From a virus (Duplodnaviria; Caudoviricetes), in the IMG/VR virus record IMGVR_UViG_3300028588_000068, positions 1 to 30,540 of that record: a stretch of 30,540 nucleotides of DNA. One strand, written 5' to 3'. Both the position numbers and the translations under genes were made by a program. Shown here piece by piece: positions 6,623 to 9,394 of the stretch. Position 1 is the stretch's first letter; each line of letters begins with the position of its first letter. The notes under the pieces are model-generated. The model searched no databases. It saw only the letters and a list, made by a program, of their open reading frames with translations, and was not told where the DNA came from.

Positions 6623-6835
6623 TCAAGCGACACCGTCCTCTGAGCCTGCTGCGGGAGAAGCGAGCGCTTCGACCTCGGCGATGAGGTAGCGACGGTGCCC
6701 GGAAGGAAGCTTCACGGGGTGCAGCTTTCCCAGCGATTCAAGGCTCAACAGTGTCGAACGGCTGACGCTTAAACGAGCCTGCGCCCAGCTCGAAGTCGCC
6801 AACGCATCTTGGGTCGCAATAGTTGGTTTCTGCAT
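6623..6835 (-). CDS. Excisionase / Cro-like MerR-type HTH protein
   Basis: Start at ATG 6835. LSVSRSTL..LE..GKLHPVKLPSGHRRY..EVEAL is a winged-HTH Xis-like motif. First gene divergent from the repressor. Confidence 0.8.
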   Translation of the reverse strand: MQKPTIATQDALATSSWAQARLSVSRSTLLSLESLGKLHPVKLPSGHRRYLIAEVEALASPAAGSEDGVA

Positions 6836-6841
6836 ACGAGG

Positions 6842-6870
6842 ACCATACGACCCGGTCCAGTCGATTGCAA
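6842..6870 (-). promoter_or_regulatory. Early lytic promoter (leaderless)
   Basis: Minus strand TTGCAA-17 nt-TATGGT, then 6 nt, then the ATG of the Xis/Cro-like gene. Confidence 0.7.
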
Positions 6871-6905
6871 GCAGATTCTGCCTAATTAACCGCACAAAAC
6901 GATTC

Positions 6906-6941: not shown

Positions 6942-7310
6942 ATGTCGATCAACACTGCGCTGCCTGGCGAAATGGACGGACTGACCGCCGATGCGGAAGT
7001 CGGCCTGAGAGTTCACACCCTTATGTGGGAGCGACGCATGACCCAGGCGCAACTCGGAGAGAAGCTGGGGCTGTCGCAGACCGGCGTTGGCAGACGACTC
7101 CGAGGGACGAACGGCTGGTCGGTCGCAGATTTGCGGGCCACTGCCCGCGTCCTTGGCGTGACAGTTGCCTACCTCGTTGGAGAGGAAGGGGTAAATCCGA
7201 CGCCCGGCAGCGTGAAGAGTCAGCCTTCAGATTACTCAGCCGACCATCGGGCCCCCGTTGTGTCGCTCTTCAGCCGTCGCGAGCTGGCCCGCGTCGCTGC
7301 CGCGCACTGA
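6942..7310 (+). CDS. Immunity repressor (XRE HTH) with C-terminal tail ending VAAAH
   Basis: MTQAQLGEKLGLSQTGVGRRLRG..WSVADL..A.VLGVTVAYLVG is an HTH_XRE pattern. Lies upstream of and co-oriented with the integrase. Confidence 0.9.
   Translation: MSINTALPGEMDGLTADAEVGLRVHTLMWERRMTQAQLGEKLGLSQTGVGRRLRGTNGWSVADLRATARVLGVTVAYLVGEEGVNPTPGSVKSQPSDYSADHRAPVVSLFSRRELARVAAAH
7221..7242. other. Putative attP core inside the repressor gene
   Basis: CAGCCTTC-AGATTA-CTCAGCCG. CAGATTA (7228-7234) is the reverse complement of TAATCTG in the tRNA-Arg anticodon arm, and the 8-bp arm is shared with the tRNA. Confidence 0.7.
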
Positions 7311-7425
7311 CTGTTCTGCCTGTCCTCCGCGCGGTAACGATATGAGTACGCCTCACGCCAACACGCGTTGGCTATCCGTAGTTTCGACTGACCCCCACAC
7401 ACCCGATACCGGTGAGGATCAGAAC

Positions 7426-8361
7426 ATGGATGACGACGCGATACTCAGCTTCTGGGCGGCATACCAAGCCGCCGAGAGCTGCACCCCTGGCACGATAAAG
7501 GAACGCATGATCGTCGTGCGAGCCCTGCTGCGCCGCTCAGAGAAGACGCTGCTTACAGTCACGCGACACGACCTCATAGCGGACCTCGCACGCGATTTAA
7601 GCCCTAAGACAAGGCAGAACTACAAGAGCCTGTTCCACACACTGTTCGCCTGGATGCAGGACGAGAGCTTCCGCCAAGACAATCCGGCCGCCCGGCTCCC
7701 CCGCACTCGGGTGCCGAAGTCCGAACCGAACCCCGTGACGACCGAAGACATCGAGTTCTTGCTCAACAGCGGCATCTATGCCAAGACACGGATGTACGTC
7801 CTCCTCTACGCCTACCAGGGATTCAGGGCCGTGGAGATCGCAGCAGTCTCCGGAGAGACGATCGACTGGGACCGGCGCCGCATCCTCTCGAAGGACGGCA
7901 AAGGCGGCAAGGAAGTGTGGCGCCCGATCCACGACATTGTTTGGTCCGAGCTGCAGCGCTACCCCCGCGAAGGTCCGCTGTTCCCCTCCCCCGCCGGCGG
8001 GCACATCAGCCGGAAGACGGTCTCCAATGTCCTGTCGAAGGCGTTCACGCGCGCAGGCATTGATCACCGACCTCACCAACTGCGCGCCTGGCACGCAACT
8101 GAGCTGATCGAAGCCGGAGTCTCCACCCTCGTCGCGCAGCACTCGATGCGGCACTCTGACCTGCAGTCCCTGAACAGGTACGTGACCGTGTCGGAGAAGC
8201 GGCTGCGCGAGGCAATGGACATGCTGCCAGGGGTGCTCGTTCCCCTCCGCTCCGGTAGAGTCTCGGGGTCCGCCCCCGTAGCTCAGTGGATAGAGCAGCA
8301 GCCTTCTAATCTGTCGGTCGCGAGTTCGAGTCTCGCCGGGGGCACCTCCGCTGCAGCTTGA
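7426..8361 (+). CDS. int: Tyrosine integrase (small, no evident N-terminal arm-binding domain)
   Basis: Catalytic residues: R (GFRAVE), K (GKGGK), HxxR (HQLR), H (MRHSD), Y (RYV). ATG 7426 has a GAGGA RBS (alternative start 7342). Ends GGTSAAA. Confidence 0.92.
   Translation: MDDDAILSFWAAYQAAESCTPGTIKERMIVVRALLRRSEKTLLTVTRHDLIADLARDLSPKTRQNYKSLFHTLFAWMQDESFRQDNPAARLPRTRVPKSEPNPVTTEDIEFLLNSGIYAKTRMYVLLYAYQGFRAVEIAAVSGETIDWDRRRILSKDGKGGKEVWRPIHDIVWSELQRYPREGPLFPSPAGGHISRKTVSNVLSKAFTRAGIDHRPHQLRAWHATELIEAGVSTLVAQHSMRHSDLQSLNRYVTVSEKRLREAMDMLPGVLVPLRSGRVSGSAPVAQWIEQQPSNLSVASSSLAGGTSAAA
8272..8344 (+). tRNA. tRNA-Arg(TCT), complete, nested in the integrase ORF
   Basis: Cloverleaf: acceptor GCCCCCG/CGGGGGC, D-arm GCTC-AGTGGATA-GAGC, anticodon loop CT-TCT-AA (anticodon 8305-8307), T-arm GCGAG-TTCGAGT-CTCGC, discriminator A. 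CCA is not encoded. Confidence 0.95.
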
Positions 8362-8417: not shown

Positions 8418-8696
8418 ATGTCGGATCGCCCTCAGAACCCATCCCTCGCCCGCGTCTTCGACAAGGCCATCCGCTCCGGCCACGAGATCCGCCACGCCGA
8501 TGAGACGCAGGTCGTCACCTTCCACAAGCCCCGCATGGGCTGCCTCGGGTTCTTCTTCGTGCTCACCCTCGTCATCATCAGCCTCGGGCTGGTGCTCGTG
8601 CTCGGCATCCTCAGCCTCGGCCGCAACTCGGGCGTCATCACCACCTACACGCTGAAGCCGAACGGCAAGATCAAGCGCCGCGAGAAGCGCGTCTGA
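8418..8696 (+). CDS. Accessory membrane protein
   Basis: 92 aa with a long hydrophobic segment (GCLGFFFVLTLVIISLGLVLVLGILSL). Candidate -10 TAGGCT 6 nt before the ATG. Confidence 0.8.
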   Translation: MSDRPQNPSLARVFDKAIRSGHEIRHADETQVVTFHKPRMGCLGFFFVLTLVIISLGLVLVLGILSLGRNSGVITTYTLKPNGKIKRREKRV

Positions 8697-8705
8697 GACG
8701 ACAGA

Positions 8706-8741
8706 AAGCCCACGGATGACCGCCTGGTCATCCGGGGGCTT
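8706..8741. terminator. Intrinsic terminator-like hairpin
   Basis: AAGCCC-A-CGGATGACC-GCCT-GGTCATCCG-G-GGGCTT, directly after the stop at 8696. Confidence 0.75.
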
Positions 8742-8833
8742 CGTCATGCCGCGGCGCGGCGCCAGCCCCTCGTTGGGGAGGTCGCGGGCTGAGCGGCGCT
8801 CATCTACGATCATCACGACCCAGGGGGACGACC

Positions 8834-9394
8834 ATGAAGACCACACACACGCTCGCCGCGGCCGCCGCCGTGCTGCTGCTCAGCCTCACGGGCTGCTCGA
8901 GCGCCGCAGACACGACGGCAGAAGCGGACAGCACCGTGGTCGACGTCGCCTCGCCGACACCCACGCCCACACCGACACCCGTGCCGATGACGATGGAAGA
9001 AGCAGGGGCGTACTACCTCGAGACAAGCTGCGTCAGCAACGTCGTCAACGACGAGCTGGATGCTGTGCTCACCAACCCCGATGCGACCCTCGAGCAGATT
9101 CAGGCCGTCGGGAAGAAGGGTGTGGAGCTCACCCGCGAGGGCGCCGAGCGCATGGCAGCCGACACCGTCCTGTGGCCCGAAGAAGTACGAGCCGATGCCG
9201 AACTGGTCTTCGACGGATACCTGGTGAACGCGAGCGGCTACAGCTCGATCGCCAACGCCCAGTCAGTCGAGGAAGCGGTCACCTACGTGTGGCCCTCCTG
9301 GTCCGAGGAAGCGCTGACCGCACCGCAGCGAATCCGCTTCGCCCTTGATCTGCCGTCCGACACCTCCGAGGGCTGCGACGCCTTCACCAAGTAG
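8834..9394 (+). CDS. Lipoprotein (possible superinfection exclusion)
   Basis: Signal peptide with lipobox LTGC, Pro-Thr linker PTPTPTPTP, acidic helical domain, C-terminal Cys. Function is inferred from position. Confidence 0.85.
   Translation: MKTTHTLAAAAAVLLLSLTGCSSAADTTAEADSTVVDVASPTPTPTPTPVPMTMEEAGAYYLETSCVSNVVNDELDAVLTNPDATLEQIQAVGKKGVELTREGAERMAADTVLWPEEVRADAELVFDGYLVNASGYSSIANAQSVEEAVTYVWPSWSEEALTAPQRIRFALDLPSDTSEGCDAFTK

Follow-up and report, generated by a model that had tools for sequence, protein, structure and literature searches.

The 30.5-kb stretch of phage DNA analysed here (the window) carries a cassette that, with a probability of about 85% in our estimate, fuses the attP of an integration-dependent immunity system with tRNA-dependent lysogeny at tRNA-Arg(TCT). 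Judged by its anatomy, the integrase (Int) would recombine a 6-bp site in the repressor gene with an identical hexamer at the anticodon arm of the only tRNA-Arg(TCT) gene that the host has. Through this crossover the repressor would be cut down to 97 aa, likely a stable form, and the host tRNA-Arg(TCT) would be split, with one half supplying a TAG stop; the phage tRNA-Arg(TCT) nested in int would likely keep the lysogen alive. Integration would also part int from the repressor promoter, and the tRNA may then be transcribed from its own promoter inside int. Relatives display two junctions, a host-derived TAG, the 6-bp core and a phage copy that is the only intact gene; the window displays the same cassette anatomy in the free-phage state. 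Its own Int presumably acts like those of the relatives, and the phage tRNA is probably essential for lysogens.

A compact cassette in a siphovirus-like contig

Family searches of the window identified terminase, portal, capsid and tape measure genes typical of a siphovirus-like phage contig. No terminal repeats were detected in the window, which may thus represent a partial phage genome. The closest named Int homologs come from Microbacteriaceae, so the host is probably a member of this family; no lysogen or host of exactly this phage was found among the relatives and genomes searched. Downstream of int, two forward genes (8418-9394) encode a small membrane protein and one resembling a lipoprotein, without any family match, and their position suggests prophage-expressed cargo. 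The cassette features are collected in Table 1.

Table 1. Features of the integration cassette, in window coordinates
Feature	Position	Strand	Remarks
Cro/excise-like small HTH gene, 70 aa	6623..6835	-	Divergent from repressor; translated from ATG 6835
Immunity repressor, phage form, 122 aa	6942..7310	+	Pfam HTH_3 above cut-off; PHROG repressor families, E=9e-13
Predicted attP	7220..7243	+	Core AGATTA (6 bp) 7229-7234 between left arm 7220-7228 and right arm 7235-7243
Repressor-side site CAGCCTTC-AGATTA	7221-7234		Inside HTH repressor ORF 6942-7310
Repressor 3' tail, predicted to be lost on integration	7233..7310	+	25 codons, end RVAAAH; putative degradation tag
Armless tyrosine integrase, 311 aa, ends SAAA	7426..8361	+	PF00589, E=1.3e-19; possible earlier start 7342
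Predicted -10 box TAGAGT for tRNA	8256..8261	+	Inside int ORF; by TANNNT motif in relatives
Complete tRNA-Arg(TCT) in int 3' end	8272..8346	+	ARAGORN; Rfam RF00005, 67.2 bits; cloverleaf fold
tRNA-side site CAGCCTTC-TAATCT	8299-8312		Inside tRNA-Arg(TCT) 8272-8346, within int ORF ending 8361

The int reading frame runs through the nested tRNA to its SAAA end, and the catalytic residues R134, K159, H217, R220, H243 and Y252 are invariant across 36 aligned homologs. Among the 120 Int matches listed out of 194, 117 are Ala-terminal; ten of the 120 continue across a tRNA, using two different frames, and every one of these still has a terminal Ala. Int and repressor tails may be protease tags. Repressor tails of relatives are Ala-terminal in just 27/48 cases and the window's terminal residue is His (AAAH), which makes a repressor degradation tag uncertain. 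The repressor's prophage form is predicted to have 97 aa ending in ...QPSD, as computed for the window; the truncation itself is observed at related prophage junctions. The divergent small gene, whose longer ORF (6623-6895) matches a Pfam MerR-type HTH at E=2.6e-5, under the curated cut-off, could act as Cro, judging from its position.

The initial annotation had singled out a pair of matching sites, and both their coordinates and the genes that harbour them, the repressor and the nested tRNA, were borne out (Table 1). The hexamer AGATTA/TAATCT is confined to these two positions in the whole window. A joint pattern spanning both sites gave two matches against 0.08 expected, a number reached by 1/100 shuffles; its significance is overstated because the pattern was built from the observation itself. 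The spacers are exact inverted matches, as had been described. The 7-bp core proposed with them was rejected, because relatives fix the crossover core at 6 bp and their prophage junctions do not require the seventh common base. An in silico flip at the core reproduced the products claimed for an inversion: a TAG at repressor codon 98 yields a 97-aa product, Int becomes 364 aa with a new tail, and the tRNA is lost. We attribute the likeness of the two sites to the functional copy of the target gene that the phage itself carries.

The repressor site is most likely the attP core, lying at 7229-7234 inside the repressor ORF. On a weight matrix built from 36 real half-sites, the arms of the window's attP score 8.6 and 1.3, with real arms spanning -3.1 to 9.8. 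In the tRNA, bases 8307-8312 (TAATCT) match this core in inverted orientation.

The phage tRNA is predicted to have its own promoter. A TANNNT motif lies 5-14 nt 5' of the phage tRNA in 28/33 loci (those parsed out of 50 tried), against a background of 2.9%. A strict sigma-70 scan of the window returned no promoter at the predicted -10 box. Host tRNA-Arg genes carry a similar -10-like motif, so gene and promoter were probably captured together. A distinct type of phage tRNA-Arg(TCT), marked by a C at loop position 38 and by a fully paired anticodon stem, occurs behind Ints of several clades (L025, L083, L089, L091, L100, L108, L110-L112) and cannot match the att core. In L106, a tRNA-Arg(TCT)-like sequence on the minus strand, whose D arm is shrunken and whose variable arm is long, lies ~70-150 nt past int and is not called by ARAGORN.

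Prophage junctions and tRNA copy number in relatives

Int searches provided 21 and 30 IMG/VR loci, one Leucobacter locus, Min1 and cluster FF phages. The search of metagenomes covered 54 loci, with the window itself (L088) dropped. Among 401 genomes of the family there were 16 Int matches, seven with the tRNA cassette; the other nine, which have more distant Ints or other contexts and no tRNA behind int, were left out. Genus-level searches added two new prophages from 129 genome slots. Same-family Ints with neither att-in-repressor nor tRNA lie directly before replication-type genes in L037-L039, L117-L119 and L135.

Prophages of these relatives share one architecture. On the int side, the host tRNA-Arg 3' half (reversed) is followed by RGATTA, the repressor tail, int and the complete phage tRNA. 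On the far side, the repressor runs through RGATTA into the host tRNA 5' half (reversed) and closes at D-TAG. Paired ends rebuilt for nine prophages identified host tRNA-Arg(TCT) every time; the core and its D-Y reading frame were the same at the two ends, and attP and attB had 6, 6, 8, 15, 7, 6, 6, 6 and 6 bp in common. This recurrence supports the view that the repressor site is an Int substrate. Repressors ending in D-stop were found at the far junctions of G001, G002, G003, G068, G055, G171, G386, G259, G494 and G445, as well as at 9/10 half-tRNA sites in IMG/VR. Locus L142 contains a repressor-side junction, and its repressor closely resembles that of the window. In L090, the closest prophage, whose Int is 88% identical to the window's, the int-side junction is composed of the host 3' half, core, repressor tail, int and an intact nested tRNA. 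The CCTTC-core-GAAGG junction with its codon-98 stop, foreseen in the initial annotation, is thus formed in related prophages, but with the host tRNA-Arg(TCT) and not with the phage tRNA.

Tandem host tRNA-Arg 3' halves lie just outside the prophage junction in L031 (1100-1300) and L090 (1060-1170). Each precedes the same short non-tRNA stretch, and they are possibly scars of earlier insertions.

In most prophages the 6-bp core is too short to rebuild the host tRNA, and in silico integration at the attP of the window, Min1 and Cole likewise rebuilt no tRNA. Copy number was assessed with one exact pattern for the tRNA 5' half in genomes that may be incomplete, and the lysogens are relatives of the window's phage rather than its host. 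By this measure, the only intact Arg(TCT) copy is phage-borne in 9/9 related lysogen genomes, and 3/3 genomes without this int have one copy. The pattern matches in lysogens are the split host half and the phage copy; in G055 the half appears twice, at a contig end. The prophage in G445 has decayed to ~6 kb and its int is cut by an IS. Its last int codons and tRNA now lie 1.15 Mb from there, next to an IS, and this tRNA is the one intact copy left in the chromosome, seemingly adopted by the host (C1:243700 in L245 and L253; C1:1395400-1401400 in L254).

Described integration-dependent immunity phages have cores of 35-40 bp. Long-core relatives occur: G404 and G405 are complete 15-kb phages (Int 64-67%) that carry the whole tRNA 3' half in the repressor, and their attP rebuilds the tRNA in silico. 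With as many as 2 mismatches allowed, the tRNA 5' half finds no match in either. L094 has a long imperfect core, yet also a phage tRNA, and is either an exception to the pattern of long cores without a tRNA or an intermediate. To call its core broken would be too strong, as ARAGORN still rebuilds a tRNA.

We conclude that the phage tRNA-Arg(TCT) is likely a spare for the host gene split by integration. The initial annotation had described the phage as the carrier of an attB mimic, and the tRNA does resemble attB; we read this resemblance as a consequence of its replacing the split gene and not as one half of a switch.

The nested tRNA as a possible recombination partner

Even with attP placed in the repressor, the tRNA might be cargo for lytic translation or anti-defence, dispensable for lysogen survival. 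Such roles have been proposed for phage tRNAs generally (PMC10865867), AGA codons are present in rep and int, and L094 combines a long core with a tRNA. We consider this very improbable, because across the relatives' cassettes the isotype of the phage tRNA is always that of the split host gene and its position is always beside int, because it supplies the only intact copy in all nine lysogens and was kept after the G445 prophage decayed, and because complete long-core relatives do without it. A further proposal, made in the initial annotation, assigns the matching sites a selected role as a programmed switch, in which Int flips the 1.08-kb segment between them and turns immunity on without integration. 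The exact 6-bp core match in inverted orientation is what such a switch would use, and according to PMC3694055 armless Ints such as these can do without a directionality factor. The arms of the window's tRNA score 10.1 and 6.0, where real attB arms score 7.2-8.8 and 6.0-9.1, and each occurs in the real host attB of a relative. A full match with an unchanged arm was found in 12/36 inverted-orientation against 0/8 direct-orientation cassettes, a small and lineage-bound sample. Nevertheless, across cassettes made non-redundant at 95% Int identity and with both att core and tRNA visible, the core of the phage tRNA equals the attP core in 16/38 cassettes of the window's orientation, where shuffling gives a mean of 14.7. 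Before G494 and G445 were added, the count was 14/36 with a shuffled mean of 14.2. Cassettes with a reversed tRNA (direct orientation) matched in 2/8 against 4.3 shuffled (P=0.17), both with a changed arm. A mismatch between tRNA and attP might be expected if self-recombination were costly, and these counts gave no statistical sign that the phage tRNA avoids self-match (Fisher P=0.70), a point against the fused cassette. Matches at chance level mean that the core is neither enriched, as a selected switch needs, nor provably avoided. Close relatives also lack the pairing: the phage tRNA of L089 (Int 90%) and L091 (87%) differs in its anticodon arm and its core is unable to pair with attP, and in L092 (79%) phage tRNA and attP differ by one base in the core. 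Moreover, a flip in the free phage destroys the tRNA, and the resulting immune genome would have no known means of being inherited.

Related assembled genomes yielded no flipped form in the search for an inverted junction, with 16 matching-core cassettes as a small sample. The matching-core prophages G002, G068 and G494 are all in normal orientation, as are all prophages with both ends on one contig. An 18-letter motif for the flipped junction had 0 matches in IMG/VR assemblies, a weak result in that no positive control matched. A scan for tRNA halves, whose positive control passed, covered 90 IMG/VR loci (80 whole, 10 halves); none of the halves has a family int upstream on the same strand, and nine of the ten are repressor junctions. 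No Int tail running from the tRNA into the repressor was seen among the 120 matches listed, and no flipped cassette was seen among the cassette loci, where downstream tRNAs are whole wherever present. With cores matched at chance level and no flipped assembly, a self-contained invertible immunity switch no longer stays plausible as a selected function, and we regard it as very unlikely. Compatible with the fused cassette that we favour, and tentatively entertained, is that Int occasionally takes a matching tRNA for an additional attB, with rare flips or tandem insertions as by-products. The scores of the tRNA arms in the window are like those of real attB, core matches neither enriched nor depleted are as expected for a nearly neutral event, and PMC10865867 speculates that a second plasmid may integrate into a plasmid-borne tRNA. 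No such event was observed in the assemblies, which is weak evidence because assemblies hide minority forms. Occasional flipping of the window's segment by Int therefore stays plausible. Were the flip put to use, a free genome would gain a stable repressor without integration, a self-made dormancy, and a prophage would acquire a hybrid tRNA and an int turned around. The spare tRNA would then also be a recombination switch, a second attB 1 kb from attP; we hold such use to be most doubtful.

Two loci met in these searches have other explanations. L165 (1400-1900) has a tRNA-Arg(TCT) 5' half by an unrelated longer integrase on the opposite strand, and reflects another element using the same gene. 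A tandem insertion into the phage tRNA of G494, where 88 nt of the host and phage tRNA regions agree to 91%, was rejected, as host genes lie at both ends and there is no second int upstream.

Relation to known phage systems

Two separately described actinophage devices would form one 1.6-kb unit across a broad family. One crossover at 6 bp would at once establish immunity and destroy a host gene that is essential, leaving the lysogen dependent on the prophage tRNA. The cassette would extend tRNA-dependent lysogeny to armless integrases and to tRNA-Arg(TCT). It also provides a natural series bearing on the evolution of tRNA-dependent lysogeny, an open question in the discussion of PMC10865867. 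The series may start with a long core without a tRNA (L060, L062) and proceed through an imperfect long core with a tRNA (L094) and a 15-bp remnant (G386) to the 6-bp core, then to a tRNA nested in int, where the tail has again come to end in Ala, and finally to a phage tRNA kept after the prophage decayed (G445). What, if anything, keeps a directionless Int off the phage's own tRNA is a question that this arrangement raises.

Integration-dependent immunity and tRNA-dependent lysogeny are each experimentally established (PMC10865867 and PMC3694055), and PMC10865867 defines the latter for lambda-like Ints and keeps integration-dependent immunity as a separate system. The mycobacteriophages BPs, Brujita and Charlie (PMC3694055) resemble the window in the cro/rep/int layout, attP inside rep, the host-supplied stop and a small, armless tyrosine Int with a terminal Ala. 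The Int studied here shares 30-35% identity with those of Charlie, Island3 and cluster P and N phages. The window differs from BPs, Brujita and Charlie in its 6-bp core without tRNA rebuilding, the full tRNA in int and the His-ending repressor tail, and its relatives likewise differ in having a full tRNA gene nested in or behind int.

With tRNA-dependent lysogeny (Fionnbharth, clusters K4, L, X, CQ2 and DL; PMC10865867), the window shares a short core, a tRNA that is not rebuilt, and a phage tRNA of the same isotype that has its own promoter (here predicted) and overlaps the 3' end of a protein gene. The cases in PMC10865867 have lambda-like Ints with arm domains and attP outside the repressor, and the window is unlike them in both respects. 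They involve tRNA-Lys, -Ile2 or -Leu with cores of 8-17 bp, there is no tRNA-Arg in Table 2 of that study, and the window's tRNA differs from theirs in lying on the same strand as int and inside it.

The nearest published precedent for pairing both devices is the Mycobacterium abscessus prophage prophiT36-2b (PMC9934374), which is an integration-dependent immunity prophage with its own tRNA, speculated there to complement an impaired tRNA-Thr at attL. It is one tandem prophage with tRNA-Thr and a 40-bp core, and not a fixed short-core cassette as here; the acceptor-stem mismatches were made by the other prophage of the tandem, and its tRNA lies 2 kb from the end.

The same cassette as in the window occurs in the Microbacterium phage Min1 and the Arthrobacter cluster FF phages Cole, Nandita, Popper and Elesar, whose Ints are ~60% and ~44% identical to the window's, respectively. 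These phages have the core GGATTA in an HTH gene and a tRNA-Arg(TCT) that is nested in int in Min1 and lies just behind int on the opposite strand in cluster FF. Unlike the window's, their tRNA cores mismatch attP. The cassette predicts attP, attB and the true repressor of these cultured phages, and is thus testable at once. In Min1 (L022, NC_009603.1, 1-1413), the tRNA-Arg(TCT) at 42-117 inside the int CDS is unannotated, and int matches as two separate segments, which points to a frameshift or an error in the sequence close to its 5' end. In Popper and Elesar (L235, L236), the gene with the predicted attP bears the annotation Cro or generic HTH, and is likely the immunity repressor. The FF tRNA-Arg has been noted without a role or a named attP in PMC13097055 and in the accessible portion of PMC12766476. 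Min1 is reported to integrate into a plasmid in PMC9030533 and PMC7302621, an observation that speaks against, and is unexplained by, a host-tRNA attB. The openly readable literature yielded no account of an integration-dependent cassette that combines a short core with a tRNA, nor of inversion between attP and a tRNA. The cassette is likely a new combination of known kinds, and a widespread one.
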